63,969 nucleotides of DNA, filler included, from Dirinaria sp. TL-2023a (GCA_051941275.1; 3 parts of 3 records of this genome joined end to end with filler, not necessarily neighbours in it); one strand, 5' to 3'; shown: positions 7,304-56,902, numbered from the whole stretch's first letter. The notes: generated from the sequence alone by a model not told the origin. Program-made: numbers and translations.

Positions 7304-8390
7304 TCATCTCACTATCACTCTGGCCACTGGTATCTCTTCGTTTTCTACCTCGACGTCTACCTCTTCCTCCTTGTTGAAGTTCTCCAGGAGGTGAGCGACT
7401 TCTGTCGCCATCGCATTCTCCGACTCTTCACTTTTATGCTCCACCCCATCGAATAATCCCTCCTCGAAGACTCCTTCCGCAATTTCATAGTCGCCTATGT
7501 ATTTCGCTATTGGCTTCAGGGTACTCTTGCGGAAATAAGATCCCGCACTGGCCAACATCTTTGAGCCGGGGCATTTACTTTTAATATCTCCGGTATCTCC
7601 ATATGCCATCATGCGCAGGACGCTCGTGACATAATGCCAGTATAGATATCGAATTCCTGGTCTGCCGTTACCCAGAAATTACCCAGAAATTGTAGCTCTT
7701 CTCCATCGTACGATCCGTAAGTTCGCTCAGGAGTTTCTGGGATTGGCTGGCTCATCAAGGCTGTGTCCAGTATCCGGAGTTTTAGTCGTTGAGGCGATCC
7801 TGGCGGCGTGTCGATAGGTACGATCACCAACTCTCCTCTATCTAATCTCTCTTCGAAAGACTTTGACATCAAAATACCATTTTTGAGATGCCAGATATGA
7901 GACTTCCCCGCTGCGAAGTCGCCTTTATCTCCCACTTGCCACGCTACATTTTCGTAGCCCATAAAAAAAGGTATTATGTGAGCGGCAATTCTCTCTCCTC
8001 CCACAGTCGACCAACGCTCTAGTATTGAACACCATTTCTCTTTAACTTTCTTAGGCCTTTCGCCTGGAGTTTGCACGATGGCCTTCCTTCGGGTGGAGCC
8101 TTGATAGAATTCGAGATCTCTCTTCCAGCTGTCATGCGGCTTTTGGTCTCCGACATGCAGTTTTGTAGCGTGGGATATTCTAAAGCTGTTTGTGATTTCT
8201 GCCGTACAGGCTTCCAGCCCCGCATTCTCTTTGCTTCCCCGTTTTGTTACCAGTCCTTCTCCTGACGGTCGAATCTGTCATGGACATCGCGGCCTTCTTG
8301 CTTCCTGCGCTTTCGATACAGTTCGTGAAGTTGCGACTACAGCTCCTCGTGACCTCATTCAATCGTCTTCGAATAATTTCAGTAACCCAT
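7304..8390 (-). pseudogene. Decayed fungal HNH-endonuclease (HNH_2-like) gene
   Basis: Motifs WCSIL...IAAHIIPF...NGILMSKSFEERLDRGELVIVP...LKLRILD...DGEELQF, then in a shifted frame GRPGIRYLYWHYVTSVLR leading into ORF 7304-7612. The shift comes from an 11-bp tandem duplication ACCCAGAAATT (7670-7680/7681-7691). Upstream there are in-frame stops at 8337-8339 and 8247-8249 and another frameshift near 8220. Confidence 0.75.
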
Positions 8391-19550: not shown

Positions 19551-21346
19551 TCAAGTCGGACTATACTTGCTCCACCCCCGAATCTTCTTCCCAAAAATGT
19601 AAAATAATATCGGACACGGTAGAAAAGCAACTGCCAGAAAGCCAAGCAGACTTGTCGCCCAGTCCACGCCTAGCCTCTTATACATGGCTGCTGCGAACAT
19701 GGGAAAGCCGCTTCCAGCTATGCTGCGTACTAAAGTGTTGGCTGCAAGGGCGGAATTGGCGTACATGAGGTACACATCGATAAGATAAGACATGCCTTGC
19801 AAAAAGATCATCTGGATCCCTGCTCCAATCGGGATCCCCGCGATAACTTGTGGCGCCCAATGCACGTGTGGATTGCTTGTCCAGGCGAACCAGAAGAGCC
19901 CGATTGGCAGCAGAAATGCGCCCAGTATCATTGGTATCAGGCGTTCTTCAGGAATGGGTTTCCCACCATTGGCGATCATCTTCCGCTTGAAGCGGGTCTG
20001 GGACGTGTAGACCACGATGGCGACCCCGACGATGACACCCAGCATTAAGCCCAGGAATGGCAACGCTCCCACGCCCAGATTCCATCCTCGTTCCTCTTGG
20101 AAGGCGATAGGGTAGGCTTCGAAGAACAGGTAGATGACGCCATAAATGAAGGACATGTAGAGCGTCATCAGGATGAGAATTGGTTCGGTCACCGTCATCG
20201 CCAAAGGGCGGAGGAGGTATCGCCGCGCGATGGATTGGAGATCGATTCGCTGCTCTTCAGCCGGAGCATGAAGGGCCCAGTTCTTCGTCTGAAAGCGGAG
20301 TTCGCTAGCCTTACGTTGGAGAAGGACAGGAGCGTAACTCTCACTGCACACCAAAAACGCCAGTGTCCAGAACACCAACGCCAGAATGAGCGTCATCCAG
20401 CTCGTCCAACGCCAGCCCATGTTGTGATTCATGACGATGAAACCCCCAGCGATAGGACCTGTCACCGGTCCGATAAATGTGGCGCCCGAGAACAAGCCGA
20501 GGGCAAAACCTCTTTCAACCGGGCCCCAAATGTCAGCGAGAGCCCCGCCAATGACTGCTATGGCAGAGGCACCGAAGACCCCCTGCAGGAAGCGGAAGAG
20601 CATAATAGTTTCAATGTTGCGGGCGACGGCAACTGGGATCTGAAAAATTGCAAACACGAAATAACCCGCGAAGAGGGGGATTTTGCGACCATAGAGCTCA
20701 CCTGCGGGATGAGATAAGGTAAATGGGAAGGTGGGAACAGAAAGATTGGCGGGAGGAACGTACTGAGAGGGCCCCAAAGCATTGGACCGATGGCAAAACC
20801 CTAGGCGACAGTCTCAGTCCGCGTTGATCGTAGCCCAGGGTGTGATGCGGAACCCACCAATACTATCAGCGCCGTGCCTAGGGTCATGACCTCCGTCGAC
20901 ACTCCAAACTCCTTTGACGTGACTTCTGTTGCCGTGCTAAATACGCTACTTGCAAAAGTGAGGGTGATGGTCAAAGTGGAATAGAGAACGGTGGTGATGT
21001 ATTTCTTGCTATTTGGCCAGTTCTGGGGGCTTTGCGGGTCATCGGGACCTGTCGAAACTGCTCAGCGGACTGCTCGACTGCACTGTAGACTTGGAGCAGT
21101 CACACCTTCCCATCCGACGACAGTAGGATCGTTGACCTTCTCCTGAGCTTCTGATCTTGCTTCTGCTACTTCGGCTGGAGCTGACTCGCGTGTTTCTCCG
21201 TCGGACATGCCTTTCTCTATATCGGGCTCTTTTCCCCCTGCTTGCGTACTACTTGTACTCGCTGCTTCCGAAGATGTTCTCTTGCCATCGGCAGCAGCTT
21301 GGAGCTGCCACAGCCGGTCTGGCTGTGTAATCGGAGGAGTAGACAT
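19551..21346 (-). CDS. MFS drug:H+ antiporter (DHA1, TPO/FLR-like), 4 exons
   Basis: VGWE|GPDDPQSPQNW, GPMLWGPLSELYGRK, RFLQGVFG, ALADIW...ERG, WRWTSW, ESYAPVLLQRKA, PEERL and YLIDVY..YANSALAANTLVRS, with introns at ~21050-21105, ~20801-20858 and ~20702-20762. The promoter runs into the contig end. Confidence 0.93.
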
Positions 21347-25631: not shown

Positions 25632-27327
25632 CTAGGCATCGGAATCGCGGTTTTCTTTGCGCGGCTTGTCACCTGTGTAAAACATCTACCGGCAACAGTC
25701 CGTTAGTATACCCGTGATTTAATATCTCATACTGGGGCAAACTCACAACCGGTAGACTGCCTGAAAAGCAAAACGCGGCGAGGACCCCGTACGTAATGGC
25801 CCAGGTGGTTTTTTCGTAGAGCAAGCCACTGATCAAAGGACCGATGACGGTTCCGGCCCCGAACGTGACATCGACCAAAGCGTAAGCTTCTGTGAACGCG
25901 CCGCTGTTCTCCGAGAGTTCGGGATTGTCCGCCTCCAGTCGTTCGACCGCAAAGGACATGTCCGAGACCAAGGATGTCAGGAACAAGTTGATCCCCATCC
26001 CTGCGATCCAAAAATGAAAATAAAGCGTCAGCAAAGATTGCCGTATCCCCAAATTGCCGTTGACAATGGTTCAAAGATGGAAAAAGGAAGTAATAATTAC
26101 CGATGAGAACCAAAAAAACGCACAGAAGGACCTTCCTGACTAAATCGGCATTTTTGACGATGCCTAGTAATGCTAGATTGGGTACAGCGAGTGTAAAGCC
26201 GAGCAGAGCGACCAGACGCCGTCCATAGCGGTCACTAAGAATGCCAAAGAGTGGGGTCATAAGCGACGGCACTGTTAACGTGAGGAATATCAACCCGGCG
26301 CCGCTCGTGTCCCAGTGGAACGTGCGTTGGACGAAGCGTGGTAAGACTGCGTCGAAGGAGGTGTGAAGTGTAGAATGGACGAAGGTGCTGTACAAAGCCG
26401 CCATTATCTGTGGAGACGCAAGTAAAGCTCTAGTTGTGGGGAACCATCTCTTAGCAGGAACCTTAGCCTTGCTAAAGCCATTTCCTAGTAGCGGCGAGAC
26501 TTCATCATGTTGCGTATTGTGGTGTGCTGTAGTTCTACCGTTTCTACTTTCTTCGACGTTGGGTGCGGTCGGATTTCCATTACCGTGCTTCGAGCCATTG
26601 CCTGCTTTTTGACTGTCCGACGACCATTGCCGTGCTCTTCTTTTATCGATAAGTAGCACTGCGGCGATAAGATCGATGGCGATGATGGCCAGGCAAATAG
26701 AAAAAACGGCGTAGTAACCCGCTTTCTGATATATAACGCCCGCTAGGACAGGCGCTACAAGTACACCGAGGTTGACTCCAGACAGGGCAAACCCGATCCA
26801 AGATCCAACTTCATCTCTTTCTACTGATTCAACCAGGAGCGCCAAAACTGTTGTGTAGACCACTCCGGCCGATATACCTTGTAAGCAACGTGCTATGACG
26901 AGGATATACGTAGCTTTCGCGAGCATGAACAACAAAGTGGCAGCCAGAGCGGCCATAAGCCCGACAACAAGAGGCACTTGGCGGAGCGGTGAATGTTGGG
27001 TAACCCACCCAGCAACTGGAGCACCTAGGACCATAAAGCAGCCGAACACAACAAAAAGTATGGTTATCCACGACTGCACCATGCTCGAAGGGACACCCGA
27101 CCTTTCAACGAGAGTGAAGGGAAGCAGAGGAACGATCTCACGATAGTCAGCTAAGGAGAACTCGACGACAAAGGAGGTTCTAGCTCTTCGACACTGACTA
27201 CGCTGTACAGGACGCCATCTGTGAAGGTAGCTATGAAGCTGGCCATTCCGATGAACCATTTGGATGACCGTAATCCCAAGAGTATTGGAGGTCGGCCAGA
27301 GCCATCTTGCGAACTTTTTCCTAGCAT
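25632..27327 (-). CDS. MFS transporter (vesicular-amine-transporter-like fungal subfamily), 4 exons
   Basis: PPILLGLRSSKWFI...ATFTDGVLYSV|IVPLLPFTLVERSG, IARCLQGISAGVV, FDAVLPRFVQRTFHW, GILSDRYGRR and GAFTEAYAL...GTVIGPLISG. Introns at ~27138-27198, ~26002-26100 and ~25688-25747. Ends in ...KENRDSDA-TAG at 25632. Confidence 0.9.
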
Positions 27328-27359
27328 AACGTCTATATGAGACACGATGAGACGATGAG

Positions 27360-27712
27360 ACGATGAGAAGAAAACCAAAGGTCAAGTCAAAAGACTGCGT
27401 CTGTACACTTGGTAGTGTAGAGTTGATCGAGTGTGGTGAAGGTAGAATGGGTGACCAGCGAACTTGACTACCGTTCGATCAAACGTTATCAGAGCATCGG
27501 TGAAGATGCTTCGGCAGTCCGACTGGATCCGATGATGATGATGATAATAAAAACCGAAGGTCAAGTCAAGATTTTGTGTTCCTACCCTCGGTGGCGTAGA
27601 GTCGATGGAGCGTGAGGAAGGTAGATTGGGTGGCCAGTGGCCGGCATTGCCGTTCAGGCAAATCTTGTCAGATTATCGGTCAGGTTGTTCCAGCAGCCCG
27701 ACTGGCTCCGAT
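27360..27712. repeat. Diverged ~179-bp tandem duplication upstream of the MFS gene
   Basis: AAAACC(A/G)AAGGTCAAGTCAA occurs at 27371 and 27550, and GACTGG(A/C)TCCGAT at 27521 and 27700. The offset stays at 179 bp with similarity throughout. Confidence 0.8.
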
Positions 27713-30336: not shown

Positions 30337-33300
30337 TTAGAAGTCACCGTTCTGGACTTCGTATCCCTGTTCATCTGGACGGCCCGGCGCGACAGTTGGC
30401 CGCCGCTGATGATGATCCTGATGGGCCGGGAATGCTGTAGTATAGAACTCGCTCCATCCGCCCATGCGTACGCGCACCAGGCCGTATTTCTCTGGGTCTT
30501 TGCTTGCCGCCTGCAAGGTTTGCAGGTCCGCGCAAGTCAAAGTGATGAGGTTACCTCCAACCCAGCCTGCGGCGTAGTCTTTGATGAACTGTTGCAGGTC
30601 TTCCAGCGGGAAGTCCTCAGGGAGATTCAAGTCGACTGGCGCCGCATCTGCGATGCCATACTCCACGGCATCCTGGTGATAACTCTTCATTACGCCGTAT
30701 ATGTTGCGGAAAGCTGGCTTTGGCGGCAGGTCTTGTGGTGAAGGGGCTGGAGATGTATCGGAAGCAACAGGCATGCCTTTGCGACGGCCGTCGGCCGAAG
30801 CCCCACACGCCTCTCCAACGCCCGTATAACCCTCGAACGTACCAGCGCCAATGGTCACCACGAACTCGAAATCTTGTCCGTATTTCTGCCTGATCCTTTC
30901 AAGCTTGGGGGCAAGCGCTGGATGGGGTTCGCGGATGACACTCTTACCAATCTCCACGATGCTGTCCATGAAATCAGCACCGATCTTCTGGAGCACGGCA
31001 TCAGCGGCACCACTAGCCCACTTGGGTAATGCCAATGCCGCCGTGCGAAGCTCTTTGTAGCGATCCGCGTGCTGCTCAGCTTCTGTTGCTGCCAACATAA
31101 GATCCTGGTAAGGCTCGATCATGCCAAATCCCCAATCATTGATCAAGCATAGAAGCAACTCGTCCAAGGTCGTGCATGCTGTCTTATCGTCATAAACTAG
31201 CTTCCAAATGGCGTAAAGCGAGTCTATAGTGTTCGAGGCGCCAGGGAACAGCGGCGCGATCATGTGGAAGCGCGCACCTCCATCAGTAAGATCACGCCCT
31301 TTCTCGATGCAGCCGTCTATCACTGTCGAGAGCAGCGGACTCGGACAGACGTCTGCCAGATTTCCATAGTGGTCCAGAATGTAACCGTAGCATTGAATCG
31401 TGAGCCATCTGAGTTGCTCTAGGAAGATTTTTTGTAACTCCTCGAACGATTTGATTGATCGCGCTAATGGCGAGCGGAACGAGGCCTTGAGACCTCTGAG
31501 ATGCTCCGACCCGGCAGCAGCGTACGTAGCTCCTTCATTGATGGTCTGCTCCAGGGCAAGGAGAGGCATGACATTGTTAAAAGCAAATTCCGTAGCCCCT
31601 GCCATCATGGGCTCGAAACAGCCATCGGCCGCATAGTCGCGAGACCGTCTAATTCCAACGTGATCGCTGGTGACTCCCGAGTCAAGAAGGCCTTTGCATA
31701 GCTTGTCATCGTTGAACAAACATGGCTGTGCACCACCCGAGAGCAGAGCCTTTGCTGCTTCCTCGATAATGCCAACGGGCGTTTGCTTGTTAAGGCGAAG
31801 CGATACGCTGGGTGCGCTGACCGGAATGCGCCTTGCTGATTTAAGGAAGAGCATGGTGACGGGGTTGCACCCATCCTGGGGCTCACCATCCATCGCCTTG
31901 TACCCTCCGATCGTGATCTGTTGGCCCCACTGATTGATGCCGCCACCTTGTGAAAAGTTTCCCCAGCCGCCGTTGATTGAGCCCGTGCCGCAGGTAATGT
32001 AATCGTGTATGAAAGAACGATCAATGAAGGCGTTCTCGCCAATCTTGACAAACAGACAATCAATGATTTCCTGTGCCCGATCTGTCGGAATTGGGTATTT
32101 TTCCAGGAATGGCCAAAGAATTTGATCGAGACGGCCAATCGACGTCAACTCTCCTACCAGGTGCAAGCAGCAGTGAAACGAATAGAGCAGCTGGACGGCA
32201 TCCTGAAAGCTCTGCGGAGCCTGATCAGCGAGGCGTCTCAGTCGATCAGATACATCAGCCATACTGTCAGCGTCATCTGCCTGGTTTTGCGTGCGAGCTT
32301 GAGCAGCGGAGTTGTCGGCAGCTGTTGCCCAATTACGCAAATAGCCTTGAACCCCTTTAAGAGACGTGATTGCGGATTTGTAGAAGGTAGCATGTGATGG
32401 GTCCTCGTGAAGCCGCTTCTCCAAGTCTGCAAGCATGTTCCCCAAGCCGTTGCGGACGAGATGGTCAAGATCAGGAATTATGTGGCCCATAGACGAAAAC
32501 TCATTGAGCTGCTTTGCCAACCAGAAGTTGAACACTTCTTCGTTACTCAGGTAAGGCATGACTTCTTTCCCTCGGCCGTATGTAAAGTCTGGAACCACGC
32601 CGACGATGAGCTCCTTGGGATGGATTCTCAAGAGTCCACATTTTTGGGCAACCTTTGAGTCGGGTGCGGACAGCAAGTTATTGAGGGTCTCAAAGTTAGC
32701 CATGGCTTTGCGTGTCGGTATAGGGATTGCTTCCATTTCCTTCTTCTTATCGTCGCTGCCAGCAAGATGGGGAAGGCGAGGAAAGTGGTCATTGTGAACC
32801 CATCCGTCACGCCAGTGGTTGAACGTCCTGTGTATCAAACTCAAGAGGCGTGGGGTTGGTCCATCGCCTTCTTTGTAACGTCCTTCGCCCATTGTGTGCA
32901 TGTAGTCCTGAAAATTGTAGAAGAGGTATCCGTTCGGGCTGCTCACTTTCCAATGCGGATGCTCGTACAAGTCGTCGCTGGCCTTCGCCGGCGAGACTCC
33001 GAGCTCCCTGGCTGCCGGCACATACCAGTACGATCCACCCACACCGGACATCATTTGCATCAACTTGTCTGCCGGATCGTCCTTTCTCTTGCCAAGAAGA
33101 TTCTGGAGAATGTCCTCAAAGCGTTGTTGTTCATTGCAAAGTGCGACAAACATGATTCCCTGTTCACGTCCTGAATGATTATGGACTCTGCCAAACGGCA
33201 ATGCTTGGCGAAGGATTTTGCGCTGATCACCATTGCTGTCACGAACGTTGGCACGATGTACGTGCCCACGTGTAGAGTGTTGAGAGAGGATAGACCCATC

Positions 33301-33897
33301 GGTTCTGCGGCCGACGATCTGGTCCTGGCTGTCGACGGTGTTCGACTTTATGGCTCCCCAGTCGAAAAGAAATCGCTGGGTGAAGGCAAAGGAAGAACCT
33401 TTGAAGTCTCCATTGATGAGGATGTCCTCTTGAAGGCTGACCGGATCGTTCGGATTGGTAATGCCGTCGTGGTATCGCCCTCCTATAATCCTCGAGTCCA
33501 GACGCTTGCCCATGACAACACAATCAATGTTTTTGGCCAGACCTTCCAAGCGCATCTTCGGTTCTTTGAGGAGCTCTTCAGCCGTGTTCTGGTCATGCGT
33601 CTTCAGGTAGAGGAGTACATCTCCACTCGTGTTCGTATACTGGTCGGTCCCATTCAGTACCTTCTCAGATATGGGAATGGTACGGTCATTCCACTTCCCC
33701 CATAGTTGCGGACTGAAACCAGCGAACAGTCCACATCGGGGCTGCTGCGAGTCAGCTGTGGCAGCAAGATCCCGAACAATGGTGATGAGACTATTGTACG
33801 TGCCCTCGTGATGATCTTTGAGGTCAATAGTCAAGAGTTGCCCGAAGAGAGAACGCGTCAACAAGCCGCGCTGGGCACCTTCTAGGATTTCGGTCAT
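30337..33897 (-). CDS. DyP-type heme peroxidase / glycyl radical enzyme fusion protein, intronless, 1186 aa
   Basis: Residues ~1-295 are DyP: GDVLLYLK, RYHDGITNP (Asp144), GSSFAFTQRF..DW, QDQIVGR, GHVHRAN (His212), KILRQALPFG (Arg230), GIMFVAL, GSYWYVP. Residues ~420-1170 are GRE: PKELIVG, GHIIPD, PQSFQDAVQ, SIGRLDQILWPF, QITIGG, PSVSLR, PCLFNDD, DGCFEP (Cys760/Glu762), SPLLSTVIDGCIEKGRD..DGGARF, GASNTIDSL.AI.KLVYD, GASADGR..G.P, LVRVRMGGWSEFY (Gly1147). Confidence 0.93.
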   Translation of the reverse strand: MTEILEGAQRGLLTRSLFGQLLTIDLKDHHEGTYNSLITIVRDLAATADSQQPRCGLFAGFSPQLWGKWNDRTIPISEKVLNGTDQYTNTSGDVLLYLKTHDQNTAEELLKEPKMRLEGLAKNIDCVVMGKRLDSRIIGGRYHDGITNPNDPVSLQEDILINGDFKGSSFAFTQRFLFDWGAIKSNTVDSQDQIVGRRTDGSILSQHSTRGHVHRANVRDSNGDQRKILRQALPFGRVHNHSGREQGIMFVALCNEQQRFEDILQNLLGKRKDDPADKLMQMMSGVGGSYWYVPAARELGVSPAKASDDLYEHPHWKVSSPNGYLFYNFQDYMHTMGEGRYKEGDGPTPRLLSLIHRTFNHWRDGWVHNDHFPRLPHLAGSDDKKKEMEAIPIPTRKAMANFETLNNLLSAPDSKVAQKCGLLRIHPKELIVGVVPDFTYGRGKEVMPYLSNEEVFNFWLAKQLNEFSSMGHIIPDLDHLVRNGLGNMLADLEKRLHEDPSHATFYKSAITSLKGVQGYLRNWATAADNSAAQARTQNQADDADSMADVSDRLRRLADQAPQSFQDAVQLLYSFHCCLHLVGELTSIGRLDQILWPFLEKYPIPTDRAQEIIDCLFVKIGENAFIDRSFIHDYITCGTGSINGGWGNFSQGGGINQWGQQITIGGYKAMDGEPQDGCNPVTMLFLKSARRIPVSAPSVSLRLNKQTPVGIIEEAAKALLSGGAQPCLFNDDKLCKGLLDSGVTSDHVGIRRSRDYAADGCFEPMMAGATEFAFNNVMPLLALEQTINEGATYAAAGSEHLRGLKASFRSPLARSIKSFEELQKIFLEQLRWLTIQCYGYILDHYGNLADVCPSPLLSTVIDGCIEKGRDLTDGGARFHMIAPLFPGASNTIDSLYAIWKLVYDDKTACTTLDELLLCLINDWGFGMIEPYQDLMLAATEAEQHADRYKELRTAALALPKWASGAADAVLQKIGADFMDSIVEIGKSVIREPHPALAPKLERIRQKYGQDFEFVVTIGAGTFEGYTGVGEACGASADGRRKGMPVASDTSPAPSPQDLPPKPAFRNIYGVMKSYHQDAVEYGIADAAPVDLNLPEDFPLEDLQQFIKDYAAGWVGGNLITLTCADLQTLQAASKDPEKYGLVRVRMGGWSEFYTTAFPAHQDHHQRRPTVAPGRPDEQGYEVQNGDF

Positions 33898-34560: not shown

Positions 34561-36560
34561 CTACAAGCTACGTCGACTCACACGTATCGGTAAGCCATTT
34601 TTAGGCCTCAGAGTAAAGCTTGGAAGGAATTCCATTTTGAAGCCCGGCTCAAGGCTAAGATCATATCGTCGGATAACCGTAGCAATCGCGATCGTCATTT
34701 CGAGCATTGCGAGCCCTTGCCCTAGAATCAAGAGGTGTTAGATTGCAGCTTCGCGATGTCTGATATGGTAACAAACCGATGCAATTTCTTGGGCCCCATG
34801 AGAAAGGGAAATAAGATCCCTTGGTCTTCGTATGGCCAGAGCCGCCAGACCGCCACCGTTCCGGATCAAAGTCATCGGCATCTTCCCATAGAGTGGGATC
34901 TCGATGCACTATAATCTCGTGAGATTCCTCAATTCATGACATTGAAATGAACGTGCAGGAATGGGATAGGCTCACCGGCAGGATTCCATAAAGCTAAGGT
35001 AGTATCTGCAGGGAGCGTCGTGCCGCACACTGTTGTATTGACCGCGCAGGTTCGGAAGCTTCCGAATCCTGTCGAGTGCACTCTCAGAGTCTCTTTGACG
35101 ACCATGTTCAAATACGGAAGCTTGGTCTGATCGATAGAAGCAATGGAATCATTGTCAGGTATACTTGCATCGATCTCTGCACGCAATCGAGCCAGGATTT
35201 CTGGGTTGCGGAGCTGCATCCCGTAGAGCTTGAGTCAGCTCTCACGATTCCATCTCCCTCAGCTAGTATGAGGCGGTCTTACCACTTCCCAAAGTAGGAA
35301 TGACATGGTGTGTGCAGTCGGGTCTGCTCCGGCCACCAGGAATGCCACTATTGATCCACACATTTGGCTCAGCAAACGATCACCAGTGAGGTCCAGCCTT
35401 CCTTTTCAATCGAACGTACCGTAATTGTCCACAAGCTCTTTCGAACTAAAGGAATAGCTTCCGTTGGACTCCTTCTGCCTGTCACAAGTCATAAGCGTCT
35501 TGGTACTCAGTGATTGCGGCGCCCTTACTTAGCCAGGATCTCAAATATTTTTTTGGGAATTTTGTTGGGTTTCTCCTGGGATGCATCGGCCCCATGGCGG
35601 ACATTCTCTACCGCTTTCTCTGCCATAAGTCTCAACTCTGCGACAGCACGATGCATCTCTCTCGTCTTTCTCAGAATGGGGAACTTTGCTCTCCAAGGAA
35701 AAAGCCCGCATTTCATGAGTTCTGGCAACACTATGTCGAAGAGCTGCATTATGCGACAGTCCGAGCCATGAGCAAGTGCGTGAAAGTCGACACCATATGC
35801 AATATCCCCAATGAAGTCAAGCGTAAGAAGGACGTGAAGTGAGGAGAAGTCAACAACGGTCTTATCTCTTGCAGCAATGTCAAGATATTCCACACAGTGC
35901 TGTGGATCATGGACAAACATCAGCAGCGATGCGATTGTGTTTAAACCCTTGCTGCTACTTACGTTTAGATGTTTTGCAAAGCAAGCGTACTGACCCTCGA
36001 TGATATTAGGTTGAAAAGCTGGTGCAAGACGCTTTCTTTGTATCCGCCATTTATCGTGATTTGTCTGTACGAACAAGGCGTCGCCACTCAGAGGCCGGAA
36101 CCCATCGTATTGAGTTGCGGCCTTCTGCCAATTCGAGTTTGAGATGGTGGTAATCATATCTGGATCGCCAATATAGATGACTCGTGAGAAAGGGCCGTTC
36201 CACTTTCATAGTTTAAGCCAATGCTGATCGTAGTTTGTGTGGAGATACTGACGGTCTGGAAGACGTGTCCGTATTCACGATTCCATTGCAACCACTACAA
36301 GCTGTTAGGCTGATTTTGACACAGGGAATATCTTGACTGACCTTTTCATGCACATTATCAGCCATCGTCTGGTCGAGGTTGCCGGTCCAGAAATTTTTCA
36401 CCGGCGGACCAGGGAATTCATAGCGAGCCCGAATATAGACGTACATGAAGCGGACAACCATAATCATTAACAATGCAATAATTGTCATGGCAAGGAATGA
36501 GACCTGGACGACGTTGAGACCACCCAGGGTCAGGGGCAAAGGAGAAGCTAGTTTCGTCAT
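34561..36560 (-). CDS. Cytochrome P450, 9 exons, atypical I-helix (AGADPT)
   Basis: N-terminal TM anchor with FPGPP, KWRIQRKRLAPAF, I-helix YVAFLVAGADPTAHTMSF (exon ~35283-35348), KETLR (ExxR), HRDP..W.DADDFDPERW, heme motif FPFSWGPRNCIG|QGLA, and stop TAG at 34561. Eight GT-AG introns were traced in frame. Confidence 0.93.
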
Positions 36561-43950: not shown

Positions 43951-46900
43951 TCATCTTCGTGGCTTTCGATTAGGTATTAAAAGCGGATTCGCGTCTTTGC
44001 GCCGCTTCGATGGGGGTTTGACGTGCGGCTTGTTGGGAACGAGGGCAGGTTTGGTGTCGCTGGATAGATTATGGTTCGTGCTAGGTTCTGGATGCCGCAA
44101 TGGTTCGGGTTGGTGTGGTTTGGAAATTTGCTTTGGATGGGAAACGCCGTTCGGTGCTGGGCCGGCCGAGGGATAGTGAGGGGAATTGGGTTCGGTAGGA
44201 GATCGTAGAGGAAGTGATGGCTTCCGAACGCCAGTTCCAGCCGTGACGTATTCATCTTGACTACCTCGAGTGTACTGTGTCTGGAAAGTATCAGCATACG
44301 AGACCTGTTCAGGGAGGAACATTTGACCCACTCCTATTTTCTGGTGTTTCGTGTTCGATGCCTTTGGTCCCTTTGGAGCATCAACCGGGGGAGATGATTC
44401 CCTTCGCCGCTTCTGTGGAATTTGTTGCGGATGCTTTAAACCAGCTTTGTCGTGCTTAGGTGATGGACTTCTCGACGTTGCCTGTATGACTGGTGTTTCC
44501 TTTGCATGGTCGCCAAGTTGCTTCTTTCTCTGCGTTTCTTGGGAGCGCTGCATAAACTGCTTGTGGCTGAGTTCGAGTTTTCGAATCCTTTCCTTTTCTG
44601 ATTTTGGCAAGCTGCAGGGTTTGGTACAGACTCGCATTGAGTGGCCAAACGTGCCACATTCTAAGCAGCGTTCTACATCGCAGGCGTCTTTTCGATGATC
44701 GAAACTTCCGCAACGGAAACATTTCATTGCACTCATTCTCCGAGCCTCTACGTTATCACACTCGAACGTGGGATGCAGAGAGCTGCCACAGAGTCCGCAG
44801 TTCGAGAGTTGGTTAAGCCCGTTCCAGCCGCCCGATGGCATGACAGCAGACGAGGCTGCATCGTCGTTCGATCTCGCCGAGGGACACTGTTCTGCCTGTA
44901 ACGTCTTAGAGGAAGAGCCACTGCTGGGGGACGAGCTCGCGACACGATCGTTTGGAGTCGAGACGCTGTGCAAAGCGGCTACGGGCGGCGCATCGGCCAT
45001 CTCGATGTCTTCGTTACTAGCCGGGGAACGCTCCGTCGGACTTCTTCCGTTCGTAATTACAGGTCCCGAGTCCAATTTGAGCATTGGTTTTTGGAGGAGC
45101 TTCATGACCTCGGGCCCAGAGAAGCGACCTCGACGTTTTGCATCTTGGATCAACCTATTCCAGAAATCGCCTTGCATCAAGGACTCAGAGTTGCCCAAAA
45201 CCCACAGAGAAGACTTCGCACGAGTGATACCCACATTCATTCTTCGAATGTCAGACAAAAACCCGATGCCCCTATTGACTGATGCTCGGACACAGGAAAA
45301 TATAATGACTTCACTTTCCCTGCCTTGAAACGCATCCGTAGTGTTGAATTCGACCGTGGAGAATATGGATTCGCCGTATCTCTGAGAGAAACGAGCCCGC
45401 AGCTCTCGAAGCTGGCTTTTGTACGGAGTGATGATGCCCACTTTTCCTTTTAAATCATATCCACTACAGTCCGTAACCAATCGTGCGAAAAGCCTCAAAG
45501 CCATTTCGATCTCCGCAACGTTGATCAAAGAGTGGCCTTTAGGAGCATTCTGCTGAACGCCTCGGACGTCGAAAAATCGGTAAGGCCCCAGAATCTCGCT
45601 TTGGTGCCACGGCTTAGCTCTGTGCTGGCTCATACCTTCCCCGTCTAATAGCCTTCCATCGTAGAACTCTCTGCTCGGGAACATGCTGATCTCAGGATGC
45701 ATGCGGTACTGAGTGTCCAGTAGATGAACGTCTTCCGCATGCTTGTTTTGCATTCTGACGAACAGGCTTTGTTCATACTGAAAACGAGCTGCTTCTCTGG
45801 ATAACACTGTGGGTGGAAGCTGTTTGGGATCACCAACAAGGATGCACTTAGTACAACCATACTTGAGAGGTATTAACGCACTAAGCTCAATTGACTGAGC
45901 GGCTTCGTCGATGATGACTGTCTCGAACTCAATGTTGAGATTCTGAAACATCTCATGACCACTGCCGCTAAGTGTCGCACAAATTACATGCGCACCATCT
46001 ATTATTTCCTGCTGAACCTTACGTCGATTGATCTCAGCCTCTCTGGCAACCATGTCACCGCTGTCACGAGCAGTGTCGATCTTGTTGCTTAGTTGTTGTT
46101 TCTTCTTCTTGAGTATGTCGAACTGCCGTTGTTGCTCGGGGGAAGGCGACTTTCCATTGGCTTTTAGTCCGTCAAAAGTCGCTCGAAGGACGTTAAGTTC
46201 GTCACAGGTAGATTTGTGAGCCATCATAATTTGATGAATATCCTCAGCATTACTGTTTTGAGTAGACTTTGTCGCACTCAATCGAGCATTGACAAGCTCT
46301 TCCAAAGTGACGTCGAGCACGTTCGTATTGATAGCATCACTTCTCCCTAGGCGGATAATGGAGGGCTTCTTGACAACGCCGCTCAATGTTTTAATACCGT
46401 CCTTAAATCGCATGACTAGTTCGTCTACAGCCGCATTACTCGGTGCACAGACGAGCAATTTTTTTGGGGCTACCGCATCAACATTATTGCGCCGAGCACC
46501 TGAAACGTCAGCCTGGGGACGGCTGATGGCAGTCCCTTTGTCTGCAAATTGTCCAGACAGCAGAGCACCAACGATGGCAACAATGGTTTTGGTCTTGCCT
46601 GAACCTGGGGGTCTATACTTTATTATGAGAAGCTCCTTGAATGCATTTGAAGCGAGGAACTTACCCTTGAATCAATGTGAAGGCGTCGTTGTCTATTGCT
46701 GACTTAATGGCTTTCGCCTGCGCAGTATTCACTCCGTAATGCGATACTAACGAGTGGAGCTGCTTTTCGGAATAATCGAGTAAAGGGGAAGGCCTGGCTT
46801 TTATAATCTCTTCACAAAGATCCATATACTTAAGGCCCAGCAACGCGCCGTATTCTCGCTCTAGAGGCGTCAAAGATAGAATCTTAGTTCCATGGAGGGT

Positions 46901-49900
46901 CGCATTTGGGATCATAGCAGTCAACAGACTGTTTTCGACGTTGACTCTGTATGATATATCCATCGTGGCCTTTTTACGATTTATCTTGTAAACGCGTGCG
47001 AAACAGTGAGGCTGGTGAGGCTCCATTGTCGGAGATTGTGCCTTCGATATCAAGATTATGTCCGCCTCGCTGATGCCTAGCTCCTTACCCTCCGGTAGTG
47101 ACATAGTGCTGCTGACCTCAACGAACGAATCGACTGTGAGTCGATTGACCACGTGAATGTCGAAGCATTTATAAGAATTCTCCTCTTTCGACTTCAAAAA
47201 TCCTTGCCACGCTTCCAGGATCAATAACGGCTCAAAGGTGTTTTGGTAGTCGTTGGGTGTGTGGAAGGTACTACTGACTAAGCTGTAATCATTGCGTTCC
47301 GATCTTGGTGGAAAGTCACCATCATGAAAGTATTCCCAGCCGAGGATGGTCTTATGCAGTATGGTCAGATCTGGTGCTAATCTAGCACGCATATCTTTCG
47401 CTGATCTATACTTCCGCGTTTTCTTGACGGGACCTGGCACCTTCGGCTGCTTCAATCGATTTTTCTGATATTCTTTCACCGCTGCAGCGGCCTTAGGTAG
47501 CTTTCCGAACAGGGCTTGATCAACCTCGTCCTCTGAGTCAGCTTCTGAATCTGTTGAGACCATGACGCTGGGGCCTTTTGGATCATGCTCTTTCCCCTGA
47601 ACGCCAAGACTGCCTAGACGCGAATTGCTGTCCACGCTCTTGCCAACAGCATTTTTCTTGAGCAATGCAGCTTGTTCGGCGTCTCTCCTTCTTTTCGCCT
47701 CAATGTCCTTCTTTCGCTTCTCGCTAAATGCTTTGCTATCTGCCAAACGTTTCTCCTCGTATTTCTTGGCCTCGAGAGCCTTGTGGTTTGGCATGAGGTG
47801 GGCCCTTGATTGGACCTGTCCATCATGTTGACGCTGTGAGGACATTTCTATACCTAGTTTCTTGGTCATCTCCACAGACTGGCTGAGTGCAAGGATGTCT
47901 TCATCTAGAACACCCGAGCTTTCAAAGCTATCGTCGTCAGATATTTCGATGGCTTGGGCTTTTGGCTTAGATTTGGATCGCCATAAGTCGATATCAATGA
48001 TTCCGTTCTTTGCTTCCCTTTTCTCTGTCTTTGTGATAGTAGAGGGTCGACGAGCTTCGAGAGTGGCCGACTTCTCAATTTCAGCTTGCGCGGGTACAAT
48101 CGCACGGCCAATGTTCGCCTCTAGTGCTCTAGCCAATTCGGCCTTTTCTTGCGGTGATAGATTAGTTTTTCCCTGAGGTCCACCTCGGACAACCGATTCG
48201 ACAAAATCGCTGGGCTGTTCTGCAAGCCTCATGCTCTTTTCCGTGAGGCGGTCGAGCAGCTTCTTGGTCAGCTTGACGGACATACCCACAAGGTACGTGT
48301 CACGAAGTCTGAGCCATTTCACGATCACTTCCATGGTCCTCGCAGGAGGCTCCAGAAGCCTTTTGGCTACGGACTCTTTCAAAGCATTTTCAAGCCCATC
48401 TTCAAGCCCATCTTCATCTTTTACTCTCACCGCAGACTCTATTGCGCTAGCAAAAACGCTGTACTGATCGAGGACGCGTTCAGACAAGTCCATGGTATCT
48501 CTAACAAATTCTTTCATAACCTCAGGTTCGGCAGCTTGCGCACGACTCCACGACTCGGTCATCTCGTAGATCACAGTGAGGATGGTCCATTGTAGGTCCC
48601 AAAAGTTCTCAAGCGCTTTCTTCTCTTGTTGACGTTGCAAGGATTTCGTGCGGAGCAATCCAGTCTGCGAATCGCAGAGTATCTCAAGGACATCGCTGCA
48701 AGTCTTCAACATTCGTGGGCAAGAAGCATAGGACCTTGTGTGTGCTATGCGACGCATGGATCTTGAAAGACTGTCTAACGTGACTTCGAAGTAAGGCGTC
48801 AAAAGGTGGCGAATGGCCTCTTTTCGTCCGGATTCGAAACTGATACTCTTCATTAAATTCACCCCTGCTTCATAGGTGCTGGCGTCTGGTGAGAACAACG
48901 ATGCTACAAGTGCGGTTGCTGTTGTGGGATGATGGAACAGCTGATCAAGATCCGTAGGATCAAAGTCGTTGATACGCTCGAGCATAAGACACACAAGATG
49001 GGTGAAGTGCCCCAACCTAACATTGAAATCGCTTTTGTACTTCTTGTGAATTACATCTTTCTTGATCTCGAACTTTTCCAATCCGGTCAGGCCGTTGATA
49101 CCACTTAATGCAGCCCTAGCTAAGGGGATATTTCGTTGGTCGAGCTGCTGCACAATAGATTCCCACATCGCAACGGCGTATGAGCAGGTTCCTGGACCGA
49201 CATCCTCTTGGTTACGTAGAGCCTCTTGGTCCGTTCTTAAGCATTTGCATTCCAGCGTCAAGGCCAGCTCGACGACTTCAAAACATTGCTTAGAGCATTG
49301 CTCGTGCCAGGGATCCTTACTAGGCAAAGCTGGTATAGCTAGGATGCGTTGAATGTATGCGCCGGAAACTTCAAGCAATTCTGCAGCGACCACGCGACCA
49401 ACTTGACTTAACCTTGGGTGTTCTTTGTTGCAATTAAGGGATATCCATTTAATGACCTTGAGCCCTGTAACAAAACAGGTGATCCTAGCATCAGACGGAA
49501 TGTTCTCCGCTTGCAGACGATCTAGCAAGTAGGATGTCAGCGTACGACAAGCCTGAGATTGGTGAACTGTTTCTAGTGAAGCGACGAAAGGTCGAATCCA
49601 GTCCAATAAGTCCCGAAGGACGTGATCGTCGGTTGCTTCAGGTAATTTGTGTAGTAATCGAACATATTGTCGGTTGTTGAAGATGTTCTCAATTACTAGA
49701 TGAGGAGAAATCGCACCCATCGCCTCCCAGAAATCCTTTGGTGCAAGTTCCAGGAACCTTTTCAGTGTTTGCAAGAGATACCTGAGTCCTGGCGAATCGT
49801 ATGTTACATGCTCGAGGAAAAGCATGAAGACATCTTTCTGAACCTCCATAGCTCGGAGATAGTGCGTGACAAGGTTGCTGTCAAGTCTCTCGAGGACGAT

Positions 49901-50854
49901 CTGGAGACCTCTCCACAGCCTTTCGATTACAGTTGTGTCAGTTATGATGAAGCTCCACTGATTGAGAGCTTGTGCTAGTGGCCCTCGCACGGCAAAGTCA
50001 AACACATCGCTGGTTAATGTCGAGGGTAAGGCCGCCCAGGTCCTGAAAGCCCAGTGCATCCTTACAGGATCAGGGTCGAATAGAAAAGTCGTGCATCCTG
50101 GTAGAAGGTATTCAACGCGTAGGACCGGCGAATCACGATAATGATCGAAAGGTGTCTGAAAGTGTTGTTGCACACGGGCAGGATCCGAGAGGAAAGCTTC
50201 GCAGCTGAGGGCATCGATCAGAGATTGCCGGGCTGTTAAGTCAGTACACTCGGCATTCTTTTCACTAGTTCCTGAACGGCAAGCATCGGCTACATGGTCA
50301 AGTCGCTGCGCAATGCGGTTAATGTCGTATTCATTCATTGCATTGATAACTCTGGTAAGATCGTCCTGGTCCACGTCTCCCCTAGTACGGTCAGCATGCC
50401 TACAACAGACAGACAAAAGCCAAGACGCTTGTTCAAGGAGCCACTTGGACTTACCGCCGCAGGTCATCGATCCACTGACGCTTATTTTGATAGTAGCCCA
50501 AAATGCATGCGTCGCAACGTGCTAGATTTCTGCCGATTTGGCGGTTTAATAGATCCTCATACGGGCCAGAGTCAGAGCCATCGTAGCTGTAAATGTACAA
50601 ACAAGTGCGGAATTCTTGGTTTCGATATTCAAGCGTGCTGACGTTTGCATGCCCAAATTCTGTTTCTTCCTGCTTAACAGGGACTAGGCCATCCTCGAGT
50701 TGCTCACTGGTCCGTGGACAAAACCAATGCGTTTCTGGCGGCAGACTCTCAAAAAAGCTGATATCATAAGCAGGGAACTCTTGGTAGTAATGCACAAATG
50801 TGGCAGGCATCTTTACCTGAAAGCTTGCAGCAATTCCTCGTTACTTGGCGTCAT
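43951..50854 (-). CDS. SEN1: Sen1 RNA/DNA helicase (UPF1-like SF1) with SEN1_N domain and three C-terminal CCHC zinc knuckles
   Basis: HWFCPR N-terminus, KDMRARLAPDL..LHKTILGW, YQNTFEPLLILEAWQ, FTLIQG|PPGSGKTKTIV, LVCAPSNAAVDEL, IIDEAAQ, LVGDPKQLPPT, LDTQYRMHP, DAFQGRE and RRMNVGITRAK. Introns near 50760-50816, 50367-50453, 46614-46664 and ~44281-44330. Confidence 0.95.
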
Positions 50855-52177: not shown

Positions 52178-55100
52178 CTACCGTAACCCTGATGGCCCGT
52201 GCACGGATCTTGTCGGCGAATGTACGGGCGAGTGGCTCGATTCCATCCTCGTTAGCAAAGCCGCAGAAGTGAAATCGTTGCTCGCTTCGTAACTTGGCCG
52301 GATCCGGTCCATCGAATTACGCATTCGATCGAATGACGGTCGTGGCCGATCGAGAGATGGCCTCGTGGGCCGCTCAAGAGAAAGCCGGGCCCCTGTGTAA
52401 TCCGTGCCGTCGCTGCCGTTCTGGCTTCGTGGGTTATGGGTAGTGCCTGTAGGAGCGACCGACGGTGGATATATCGGCCTTTCGTCATCGGCCAGAGGTG
52501 CAGGTCCGCCTTGATTTGATCTAATGGGTTGTGAAATCTCGGATGATGATGGCGAAGATACGGCTTTGGGGGGTACGTAAGCTTCGTACTGATCAAGATA
52601 CGAAAATTTTCCTTGTCGTATTTGCTCTCGGACAATATCCACATCGTAGGGCACGAACACTTTCTGAAAGGCCTTGACAGTGAACCTTGGCAGGAGGCAG
52701 ATAGATATGGTGAGCAGTGTCTGAAGCCAGAACGTGAGTTGGCCGTAGGTCTGGGGCGCTGCCTTGTAGAAATACGCAGAGCTTGTGAATGCAGAGTAGA
52801 CTCCGGTCCACCACCAGATGAGCAGGATGCTGATAGTGACAAGTACAAGCATTAACCAGTCCCACCGATAAGTGTTGAGCAAGATGTAGATGTTGACAAC
52901 GGCTATGGTAGCACAAGCCACGTAAACGCCGACCCGTTTTTGGTCATCGATGGAGAGTCCGTTGTCGGTGACGAAGTTCGCAGGTCGAAATACAAGATAG
53001 GCCATAAAAAAACAAATTACGGATTGATAGATGCCGTCGGCCATATAGAGCCTGCGAGTATTAGATGATGCACAATTCTCAGGAGCAAAACGCCTACCAG
53101 AACTTGCGTTGGGTCCACTCTTTACGTTCGATGCCTCTCCGGTATAGCTGAGGCACAGCTAACGATACCTTATCGTTGACATCTTGGTCGAGGACCCCCA
53201 TGGCAATGACGGCGAGGGATGTGAATACGAGGTTGACCAAGAGTATGTAGGTATAGTCGAAGAGATATGTAGTGTCGAAGTCGTTAGATAACTGGTACCA
53301 GAAGAGCGCGAAAGTCCACACGATGTTCTGCGGGTCATCAGTAAGGATTTGCGATGGCCGTAGGTTGTATAGCGAACTTCTGACTTACCTTGTAGAAGAA
53401 ATTCGCGATGGATTCTGCTAGTCGCCGGTAAGACCAACGCCCGTGAACTAAGATTAATCTTTGCAGGAAGCGGAATTGGCCAATTGCATAGTCAGACGAC
53501 ATGACAGCTTGCCTTCCTTCCTCTCCTGCAATACCTACGCCAACGTCGGCTTGCTGTATCATGGCCACGTCATTAGCTCCATCTCCCACAGAGAGTGTCA
53601 TGACATCAAGTCCACTTTTTACTAGTTGCACTACGGCCGCCTTTTGCGCAGGGCTTACTCGGCAACACAGAACAGCTTTGCATTGCTTGCAGAGCAGCAA
53701 GAACTTTTGACGTAAGCTGTCATCGAGCACCAGTCCTAGCGTATCGCCATCTATAACAATGGCATGAGTTGGTCCAGGCGGTTCGTGATTCTTGCGGGCA
53801 GCCTGCAACTCTTCATCCGACCCTGTGATACCAAACGCATTGAGGTGCTTGCCAAGTTCAGTTGTAGCGGATTCCAAATTCCCATCTTCAATACAGAAGA
53901 CAATCAGATCCATATCATTGTTTAGCAGGTTGCAGGAGAAGCCAATGTTGATAGCAGTCTCAACCTTATCCCCAGTCAGAACCCAGAGCTTGATACCAGC
54001 GTCACCGAGCAGAGCAATCGTGTCAGGAACCCCATCCTGTAAGCGGTCTTCAATGGCAGTCCCTCCCAGAAGTGTCAGGTCTCTTTCCATCACATCAGAG
54101 ACTTTCTCGAGCTTGTCTTCCCGATCGACAATAGCTGCGGCGGCCACATCGTGCTCTTCGTTCCACTTCTGGTACTCTTGTTCATCAAGCTCTTTTTGCG
54201 CGATGCAAAGTGTTCGCAATCCTTCACGAGCAAACATTTCTAGGTGCTCGGCTGTACTTTTCCGCAGCTGAGACTGTTCACCGCGTTTCAGCCGTGAATA
54301 GATAACGCTATCAGCGCCTTTGCAGAACAAGATAATCTTCCCATCGGGCATGCGGATGATGGCGCTCATGCGTTTCCTGGACGAGTTGAATTCGAGGGTG
54401 TTGAGCACCTTATATTCTCTGTCCTCGCCCATGACGTTGAGGAGTATACCATCACTAGAGCGCCCAATCACCGTAAAGCCACAGTCGCGCGCAGTCGCGA
54501 CTAGAGCAGCCTCATCTGGAGATTGTGCTTTGAACTCGATCTTCGGTGGATCACCTGGTGTTCGTTCAGTGATAACTGTGTGACATAGAGCAAGAGCGAG
54601 CATGAATTGTTCGTTTGCCATCCTTTGTGCCTGCCCAGAGGACCCATCCAAATCATTGACAAAGTCCGGGGCGACAAACGTCAGGTCATCGTCACGCAGG
54701 TAGGGGTTGTTGTGCATCTTGCGCAGGTCTTTCAGCATCTTGATACGGTCTTCGGCGATCTGTTTGTGAGCTTTGGCGCCTTCCTCCTCAATGTCGATGC
54801 CTTGTCGCCTTTGCATGCCGGCTTGAGCTTCTGTATAAGCCTCGCCATAGGGGACCCCATTGATGCTACACTTCTTGAACTCCATGACATTCTGTGTCAG
54901 TGTGCCGGTCTTGTCAGAGAATATGTATTCGATTTGACCAACGTCGTCCGATATATTCCAGGACTTCGGTGTGCACGGATAATCGATTTTTTCGTAGTAC
55001 ATGAATGTATCACTGTAGATGAAGAACGCTTGGAGCGTTCGGACGATCTCGAGGGAGATATATAAGGATATCGGGACCAAATTTTGGAAAAGGATCACGC

Positions 55101-56902
55101 AACTCCAGAAGGTAATAAAACCATCGAGTGCAGGGCTACTTGCAATGGCCCCAAATTCGAAGAACGTGAATGAGTTGTCGCTCTGAGACCATGTCACGCC
55201 TTGAATAATCCCAGAGACCAGGCACATGAAGAACAGTATGACAAAATTGTATATGACATTCCAATTCAGCTCTCTCGCGATACGTGAGCGCTTGCTGGGG
55301 GTAAATCCGGAATTGAGCATGATCTTTGTCTCCTGGCCAGTGAAGACAACAACCGCAAGGACCCACTCTGTGTTGCGGAGGCTACATCCTCGCAAGAGCA
55401 GATTATTGATTGAGATGGGCTCAGCCATATCTTTCCCTGGCTCTCCCGGGTTTTTGATATCGCGCTGTGTCCACCTTGCCGCACCGTTGTATTGATATAG
55501 ATTTGCATGCGGTGGCTCGCTCTCAATCACAAACTCAGCTTGTTCGCAATGCTTTGCATGCTTTAGCTGGCGACCGCTGTGGAGAGCTTGTCGGACTTTG
55601 AGATTTGTCTCGCCATCTAGATTTTTTGTCTCAACATAGCAAGCCCCGTCTGGATCTGACGTCGCAAGGATGACCACGTCCGCAGGCACCTGGTCTTCGT
55701 TGTATATGCGTACAAAATCACCAACTTTGACACTTTTCCAATAGTCCTTGACGAATCGAGCTTTGCCTGGAGCTGACTTTAAAGGATTGAGGAGACTGCC
55801 ATAGAATTTTGTTGGTATAGAGTCGCCAAGATCTTGGTCGCTGTGGCCTCGTGCACCGAGTTCGTCATCTTCTCCTCTCAGCGTGAGGTCGCTCTTCTGA
55901 TACGAAAATGCTGACACTGGCCGTTGTGCGCCTTCACCATGCGCTACCTCGAGCTTCCGGTCATGGCCTGGCTGAGGCGATGGTACAGGTGTCATCTGTA
56001 TACCTTCTTCACCAATTCCACTATTGATCGAATGAAAGGAAGTACGCGAGGAAGCCCGCGAATGGCCAATCGAGCGGCTTGTGTCTGCCGAAACCCGAGG
56101 CTCATCCAAGGCTCGCTGGACAAAGCCGTTGCCATGTTCAGGTTTTTTACCCATCTTGGCCTTGCCAAACCTATAAGTGGAGATAATTCCTCGAGTTGTG
56201 GCTTTCTTGATCCTTCGCCAAAGGGAAATGTCATCGTCAGAAACGTTGACATTGTGCCAGTCGACCAAACGTTGCACTGGCAAGTTGTTCAGCTCGTTGT
56301 CCAACACAGTTCTCCGCCAATCCTCTATGGCTTCTTTCACAGCGGTCAGGAAGAGAATAACAATTAGTGGCACCGCGCTCAAACCCGGATTAGGGTTACC
56401 GAAGATTTGGAAGATCTGCAAAGGATGATACGTTAGTGGTAGAGGTTGGAACTGAGAAGAGGTCCCTTACCCCCAGGATGATAACAAACAAGAAGTAGAT
56501 GTTGGCGACATTGTGAAATTGAAACCACAGATTTTTGGGGATGAAACTCAAGGGTGTATATTTAGCCGTCCGAATCTTGTTCCTGCTGAATTTTGTGATC
56601 GGCCGCCCTTCTTCGTCCTTAGCATCGCTCGGCAGAGGGATGTTGAAAAAGATCCGCCGCTGCGACTCTTCCTGTTCGTCACCATCCTCTGAACCATCGC
56701 CGTCCTGTGCCTGGACCCCATGGTGTGACGCTTCGCCGGACGCTCTTTTTTTCTCCGTTGAGCCCGATCTCCTGTGTAGTCGATCAATAATTCCATGGCG
56801 CTTCTTCCCCGCGCCTGAGCCGGTGACTCTTTGGGTAGCCCATCGTATCCGCTTGATCGGATTTGAAACATTGCTTTGTTCTTGATATGGCTGGATCGCC
56901 AT
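52178..56902 (-). CDS. DNF1: P4-type ATPase phospholipid flippase (Dnf1/Dnf2-type), 4 exons
   Basis: RNKIRTAKYTPLSFIPKNL, ETKNLDGETNLK, LVPISLYIS, IFSDKTGTLTQN, AQSPDEAALV, KGADS, WVLTGDKVETAINIG, CCRVSPAQKA, GDGANDVAMIQ and HGRWSYRR. Confidence 0.95.

Follow-up and report, generated by a model that had tools for sequence, protein, structure and literature searches.

The threonine of the I helix is among the most conserved functional residues of cytochromes P450, and the acid-alcohol motif to which it belongs is typical of the superfamily, even if it is not obligatory. In canonical P450s, the kink held by this threonine is the site of O2 and water. The pulcherriminic acid synthase of Bacillus subtilis, CYP134A1 (CypX), depends on O2 and a redox partner, and the enzymes CYP74, CYP5A1 and CYP8A1 are associated with membranes. 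PMC11900375 describes, for BM3 (CYP102A1), a bond between Thr268 and the carbonyl of Ala264, four residues back, which leads to the I-helix kink, and reports that O2 activation is uncoupled in the T268A and T268N variants. The same uncoupling is reviewed for the T252A variant of P450cam (PMC9112060).

Proline is known to occupy the alcohol position in a few P450s. In the bacterial and soluble CYP134A1, a natural proline stands for the alcohol residue, and the other oxygen-activation positions are mainly hydrophobic (excerpt of the review PMC7731078). The bacterial CYP152 enzymes P450 BS-beta, SP-alpha and OleT also carry it, next to a carboxylate-binding arginine at the acid position, and their Cys loop is atypical at the redox-partner face (excerpt of PMC5818669). 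Proline was moreover introduced by engineering in the T268P variants of BM3, for example F87A/T268P/V78I (7ydd/7yjf), which are driven by H2O2 and a dual-functional small molecule (excerpt of PMC9143554). In eukaryotes, the Thr-less CYP74, CYP5A1 and CYP8A1 have a remodelled I-helix groove and operate with neither O2 nor a reductase (excerpt of PMC10813956).

What is new in the present analysis is a natural acid-Pro-Thr I helix which, according to the alignments described below, is kept across fungal phyla in a mislabelled P450 family. It was studied in the lichen Dirinaria sp. TL-2023a, within a window, i.e. the whole stretch of DNA that was analysed, of 63,969 nucleotides, filler included. 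The features of the P450 gene are given below; invariance refers to alignment A1, which comprises 26 family sequences from two phyla.

34561..36560, minus strand: P450 gene from start to stop codon, 9 exons, 508 aa
36560-36342, 36294-36253 and 36202-35963, minus strand: P450 exons 1-3 of the coordinate-built model
35899-35529, 35478-35420 and 35347-35283, minus strand: P450 exons 4-6 of the coordinate-built model
35213-34976, 34908-34777 and 34721-34561, minus strand: P450 exons 7-9 of the coordinate-built model
35283..35347, minus strand: I-helix exon (exon 6), 65 nt, encoding (V)AFLVAGADPTAHTMSFLLWEV, with borders confirmed by the RNA joints
35319..35321, minus strand: codon CCG of Pro320, which gap-free alignments match to the catalytic threonine of the I helix
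35322..35324, minus strand: codon GAC of Asp319, the acid half of the acid-alcohol pair, kept here and nearly invariant in A1
35316..35318, minus strand: codon ACT of Thr321, candidate substitute hydroxyl after the proline, nearly invariant in A1
36402..36416, minus strand: FPGPP hinge after the N-terminal hydrophobic helix, P50 and P52 invariant in A1
35082..35093, minus strand: ExxR motif (ETLR) of the K helix, E373 and R376 invariant in A1
34853..34864, minus strand: PERW meander motif, P427, R429 and W430 invariant in A1
34720..34804, minus strand: heme-binding loop FSWGPRNCIG, split by a 55-nt intron (34776-34722)

The gene model was built from six-frame ORFs and splice signals, then checked against homologs and RNA contigs. 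All eight introns have GT..AG borders and measure 47-72 nt, and the reading frame is open through 508 codons. The RNA contigs come from four runs on one lichen metatranscriptome sample, produced in a single study, and match the window at 95-99%; they serve here as evidence of presence and of exon joins only. Contigs from the four runs remove exactly the eight modelled introns, and each contig spans the P450 as a whole with a length of 1.8-2.1 kb, as expected for one gene. Two of the joints display one extra letter, which amounts to one differing base adjacent to the splice site and leaves the border unchanged. For exon 6, the joints are 35213/35283 and 35348/35422, and no difference is listed inside 35283-35347. 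An alternative acceptor of intron 6 at 35228, which would add the five residues LYGMQ, was rejected on the basis of the homologs and of the RNA contigs, both of which point to 35213. The splicing, for which the original prediction had suggested a cDNA check, is therefore borne out by RNA contigs from one sample that join the exons as modelled, and the P450 gene is intact and expressed. A database protein, P0001, differs from the model at 3 of 508 residues. This protein is known only from a Logan assembly, the longest contig of which (2146) is equal in length to the contig of run X2 (2146 letters).

The product is recognized as a P450 by the Pfam profile PF00067, which single exons pass with 58.2 and 23.9 bits for a cut-off of 22.8 and which is present in all homologs. 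The I-helix exon reads VAFLVAGADPTAHTMSF, its first codon (V) being split by the preceding intron, and AGADPT corresponds to residues 316-321. The consensus (A/G)Gx(D/E)T(T/S) is not matched, the acid being kept and the alcohol replaced by proline. This reading, together with the intact ExxR, PERW and FxxGxRxCxG motifs, was part of the original prediction and holds in the nine-exon model. The exon itself had been located correctly, at 35283..35348, with one base in excess, position 35348 being the G of the AG acceptor. In the heme-binding loop, A1 shows no variation at F447, G450, R452, C454 and G456, and Cys454, in the ligand loop, is encoded at 34783-34781.

The placement of Pro320 in the threonine column was examined by profile and pairwise alignment. 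When 26 family members are combined into a profile, it aligns gap-free to CYP46A1 and CYP3A4 over a stretch that starts about 20 residues ahead of the motif and extends 30 residues past it, the family motif vaGgdptaht facing AGHETSANH in CYP46A1 and AGYETTSSV in CYP3A4. The same register is obtained with the I helix alone of the window type, in which AGADPT lies over AGHEPT of the engineered BM3 T268P. Residues D319, P320 and T321 correspond in this way to E/T/S in CYP46A1, E/T/T in CYP3A4 and E/P/T in BM3 T268P, and Thr321 aligns to the second T/S of the consensus. By these alignments, Pro320 is the replacement of the catalytic threonine and Asp319 is the canonical acid. The P450 fold tolerates a proline in this column, since AGHEPT is present in the structure of BM3 T268P (7ydd), the sole solved acid-Pro-Thr I helix that was found. 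The model obtained with AlphaFold2 has a pLDDT of 78.7 and a pTM of 0.79, and its Foldseek matches are CYP3A5, CYP3A4, CYP97, CYP46A1 and BM3 (E about 1e-21, TM 0.69-0.87, 20-25% identity). Its predicted secondary structure draws the I helix, residues 303-334, as unbroken, residues 311-320 being less confident (mean pLDDT 70). A hydrophobic N-terminal helix is predicted at residues 17-48, just before FPGPP, and would represent a membrane anchor of the type found in the endoplasmic reticulum.

Database searches indicate that the lichen P450 belongs to a fungal family that is small, old and highly conserved, and that is characterized by the motif AG[AG]DPTAHT. In Lecanoromycetes, members were found in Dirinaria, Calogaya, Polycauliona, Caloplaca and Flavoplaca. 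Other Ascomycota are represented by Xylariales, Cryphonectria, Lasiosphaeria, Botryosphaeriales, Venturia, Pyrenophora and Rhynchosporium, Agaricomycetes by Fomitiporia, Sanghuangporus, Phanerochaete, Phlebiopsis, Hermanssonia, Pleurotus, Peniophora and Sphaerobolus, and Mucoromycota by a single member from Calcarisporiella. Identity between the lichen protein and the other members is 50-67%. Scores within the family range from 604 to 459 bits in the exhaustive search, the low end being occupied by the 498-aa P0161 with 44% identity, and the next full-length proteins beyond it score at most 309 bits with 23-35% identity. One of the distant representatives outside the family is a sea-anemone protein named 'cholesterol 24-hydroxylase-like'. 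Two further segments stand out in A1, namely PELMKCGLFP (P226-P235) and GFGxFR (G381-R386), which are invariant except for the nearly invariant T384. A literature search retrieved no paper on this family, and the motif GGDPT combined with P450 was unmatched in full texts. The ESM Atlas returned generic P450 clusters only.

The proline is retained throughout this family. Among the first 38 homologs, [AG]DPT was read in 32, five did not cover the region, and one, P0038 from Rhynchosporium, was garbled at the motif (AGSRPNRS) and was not counted. A profile alignment was then compiled from the P450s of the word-based search and of an exhaustive search of 1.84 billion representatives. The column is covered by 247 domains, 38 of which have proline, every one of them a family row. 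The 209 domains outside the family have none: threonine is found in 187, serine in 16, asparagine in 2, and isoleucine, alanine, glycine and phenylalanine in 1 each. Fourteen more proteins were added, 13 by a second word-based search and 1 by a cluster look-up; eight of them cover the column, with six prolines, one threonine and one serine. Taken together, proline is present in 44 of 46 family rows covering the column versus 0 of 209 outgroup P450 domains, a statistically striking contrast that exceeds chance, and the rows concerned span Ascomycota, Basidiomycota and one member of Mucoromycota. The conservation of Asp-Pro in orthologs, which the original prediction had proposed to verify, is thereby established.

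The two exceptions deserve a closer description. The threonine is found in P0318 from Lasiosphaeria (DTT, 329 aa), which is missing portions of both termini as well as four residues of the I helix, and the serine in P0320 from Pyrenophora (DST, 328 aa), which has in addition the changes P50L, P226L and C231Y where the family is otherwise invariant. From these sequences, both are read as damaged or mis-modelled copies, with no evidence of a functional threonine. The additional changes of P0320 are explicable by single transitions. A second Pyrenophora gene model skips the I-helix exon, and 11 of the 52 gene models examined, full-length and partial, either skip this exon or fall short of it. In a tree with 34 rows from the family and 12 from the outgroup, obtained by a quick search and including some long branches, the family forms one clade (SH-aLRT 99) to which P0001 also belongs. 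Because both exceptions are nested within clades of support 100, proline appears to be the ancestral state of the family, and the best explanation of this pattern is that it became fixed before the major fungal lineages of the family diverged. Nemania serpens is represented twice, once in each of two ascomycete groups of this tree, and DPT is kept in both copies.

Among solved structures, those nearest in sequence belong to CYP46A1 (E 1.7e-60), CYP3A4/5/7, CYP102, CYP97 and CYP4B1. CYP46A1, the cholesterol 24-hydroxylase, shares with the fungal protein the same fold (TM 0.70-0.87), an I helix of equal length aligned with no gap, and canonical ExxR, PERF-type and Cys-loop motifs. It differs by an identity of only 24-25% and by Glu-Thr-Ser in place of Asp-Pro-Thr. 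P450 nomenclature assigns proteins to the same family above about 40% identity. The fungal family is, as judged from these identities, separate from CYP46: membership was rejected, and the automatic NCBI name 'cytochrome P450 46A1' is a nearest-match name, given this low identity. The names of the database entries called 'cytochrome P450 46A1 / cholesterol 24-hydroxylase' are corrected accordingly.

The enzymes with a proline at the alcohol position are also distinct. BM3 T268P is an engineered, soluble bacterial heme domain with about 21% identity to the fungal P450. CYP134A1 is absent among the 60 best PDB matches and is mainly hydrophobic at its other oxygen-activation positions, whereas the fungal family keeps the aspartate. 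The original prediction had drawn an analogy with CYP152, which is valid for the proline and fails elsewhere: the pair is Asp-Pro instead of Arg-Pro, the Cys loop is the canonical FxxGxRxCxG instead of an atypical one, and the fungal protein has a hydrophobic N-terminal helix ahead of FPGPP, whereas the CYP152 enzymes are soluble. Membership of CYP152 was rejected on these grounds. As for CYP74, CYP5A1 and CYP8A1, they are absent among the PDB sequence and fold matches listed, and no closer kinship was detected with these enzymes.

Apart from the loss of the threonine, the features of the family are those of a reductase-dependent microsomal P450, namely the anchor helix, FPGPP, ExxR, PERW, FxxGxRxCxG and Asp319. 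The reading that is somewhat favored here, from sequence features, is that of an oxidase dependent on O2 and a reductase, in which proton delivery would be altered. It is preferred because of the canonical motifs, the retained Asp319, the N-terminal anchor and the precedent of a proline in CYP134A1. In such an enzyme, O2 activation would be kept and the electrons would be supplied by P450 reductase. Since a proline has no amide hydrogen, Pro320 cannot donate a backbone hydrogen bond; the carbonyl of Ala316 would therefore be left free and the I-helix groove would be permanently built in. Protons would reach the iron-hydroperoxo species by way of ordered water and Asp319, which has been kept, and Thr321, Thr324 or some polar moiety of the substrate could assist, as in other Thr-less P450s that depend on O2. 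The invariant PELMKCGLFP and GFGxFR segments suggest one conserved lipophilic endogenous substrate and not varied xenobiotics. The acid-Pro-Thr family would in this case constitute a natural and selected test case for O2 activation and proton delivery in which the hydroxyl is missing. If it is driven by peroxide instead, it would be a candidate for a native eukaryotic P450 of this kind, of interest to biocatalysis.

Before these two possibilities are compared, the reality of Pro320 has to be considered. One could imagine that a base was misread in sequencing, that the exon is mis-spliced or that the gene is decaying into a pseudogene, as a change from ACG to CCG takes a single base and as the exon of only 65 nt is missing from several database gene models. 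Such an artefact has practically no chance of being the explanation, because the RNA contigs carry exon 6 with no difference and correctly spliced, because 508 codons are open and because the proline recurs in 44 of 46 family rows; a private mutation or a sequencing error was likewise rejected, the RNA contigs being in agreement and the proline family-wide. A more substantial alternative is that the family uses preformed peroxide, either as an H2O2 peroxygenase or as an enzyme rearranging lipid hydroperoxides or endoperoxides, in which the threonine would be dispensable and the proline would shape the peroxide site. The strict retention of proline in the threonine column is in line with this alternative and could equally mean that O2 activation is needless. 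CYP5A1, which belongs to the CYP3 clan and has kept the acid and lost the threonine, offers a close analogy to Asp-Pro. Further arguments of the same kind are the uncoupling of O2 activation caused by loss of the threonine in model P450s (PMC9112060; excerpt of PMC11900375), the proline of the CYP152 peroxygenases, the use of H2O2 and a helper molecule with BM3 T268P, and the membrane-bound, Thr-less CYP74, CYP5A1 and CYP8A1, which are independent of O2 and electrons (excerpts of PMC5818669, PMC9143554 and PMC10813956). The canonical Cys loop, ExxR and PERW, the conserved Asp319 and the acid position devoid of arginine nevertheless argue against it, CYP152, CYP74 and CYP8A are absent among the 60 best PDB sequence matches and the 41 fold matches listed (ranks up to 50), and no dioxygenase or lipoxygenase gene was found among the window ORFs scanned. 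The use of preformed peroxide is on balance unlikely, and neither it nor the radical coupling suggested in the original prediction is favored by any result of the analysis. Its most specific form would make the family the first eukaryotic membrane-anchored P450s natively run on peroxide, with Pro320 remodelling the groove and Asp319 swinging in as a distal acid-base by which the O-O bond of H2O2 or of a lipid hydroperoxide would be cleaved. This proposal is rather doubtful; should it be true, the family would be the natural counterpart, in at least three fungal phyla, of the engineered acid-Pro-Thr peroxygenase variants of BM3.

The dependence on O2 and a reductase being retained as the preferred reading, a last question is raised by the gene located downstream of the P450 on the same strand, 663 bp past the P450 stop codon:

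30340..33897, minus strand: intronless gene for a fusion of DyP_C and PFL-like domains, 1186 aa, Pfam PF20628 and PF02901

This fusion has been published under the name 'dyprx' in Chaetomium (excerpt of PMC5041501), and its homologs are found in fungi and in betaproteobacteria, the latter with 56-58% identity. The tandem arrangement on one strand, the short distance and the fact that both products are heme enzymes make it tempting to regard them as functional partners, for example through peroxide or radicals that the P450 would use or would supply to the DyP domain. The comparison with other genomes speaks otherwise. Among the matches listed, the two genes are non-adjacent in all 11 organisms common to both homolog lists. 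In three of three assemblies, widely separated locus tags were found, the P450 and DyP-PFL genes being respectively Q9226_000464 and _003353 in Calogaya, Q9169_005574 and _004424 in Polycauliona, and CIB48_g3746 and g4105 in Xylaria polymorpha; in the 8 further organisms they lie on contigs of different length, the lengths being those of the cluster representatives, so that the evidence is good though indirect. The basidiomycetes that carry the P450 are absent among the best 120 of 138 DyP-PFL matches. The intronless structure and the betaproteobacterial homologs of the fusion, versus the eight introns of the P450, are consistent with separate histories, and the RNA contigs across the P450 are of single-gene size. 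A functional partnership is accordingly judged highly improbable, the adjacency looks like a lineage-specific accident in this comparison, and the idea of the original prediction that the P450 would fit a DyP partner finds no support; the tie between the two genes was removed for this reason. A Pfam scan of the 40 window ORF translations of at least 84 aa, from which small exons may escape, detected no PKS, NRPS or terpene synthase core enzyme. The genes recognized by the same scan include transporters, a transcription factor, a helicase and a flippase, among others.

The proline that stands in the column of the catalytic I-helix Thr is retained when the P450 family is present in two copies within Nemania serpens (P0310 and P0010). 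Each of the two ascomycete groups in the tree holds one of these copies, and their signatures read VAFLVAG.DPTAHTMSFL in one and VTFLVAGGDPTAHTITFA in the other. Two copies of the family are also found in Xylaria arbuscula, Fomitiporia and Sphaerobolus.

In P0320, a homolog from Pyrenophora tritici-repentis, this proline is replaced by a serine. The same protein carries P50L, P226L and C231Y, each at a position that is invariant in the family. Each of these four substitutions could have arisen by one transition, a pattern expected of repeat-induced point mutation or decay. In P0311, the other model from this species, the I-helix exon is skipped.

This region is affected in several deposited models of the family, in which either introns 5 and 6 are kept as coding sequence or the 65-nt I-helix exon is skipped: P0002 (Calogaya), P0009, P0016, P0027, P0030, P0036 and P0311. 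As a result, part of the public annotation does not show the proline that is the hallmark of the family. The 567-aa model P0035 (Sanghuangporus sanghuang) combines the P450 with cytidine-deaminase-type domains (PF00383 and PF08211), and this joint is probably a merged gene model.

The neighboring DyP-PFL fusion gene (30340-33897, minus strand) contains no introns, whereas the adjoining P450 gene has 8. Full-length homologs of the fusion, 56-58% identical, are found in the betaproteobacteria Andreprevotia, Chromobacterium, Janthinobacterium, Collimonas and Massilia, and the fusion looks like a case of gene transfer between bacteria and fungi.

Other genes were located in the window, among them a SEN1-type helicase (43951-50521, minus strand) that appears as two long ORFs, and two MFS transporters:

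46661-50521, minus strand, SEN1-type helicase, N-terminal and barrel domains
43951-46671, minus strand, SEN1-type helicase core
19551-20813, MFS transporter
25727-27478, MFS transporter

The two helicase ORFs are presumably parts of a single gene that is interrupted by an intron or changes frame near 46660-46670. Two further ORFs (52178-56466, minus strand) together encode a phospholipid-translocating P-type ATPase (flippase), which, like the MFS transporters, is ordinary housekeeping context. An HNH_2 endonuclease domain (E 3.8e-06) was detected in an ORF at 7609-8277 (minus strand).
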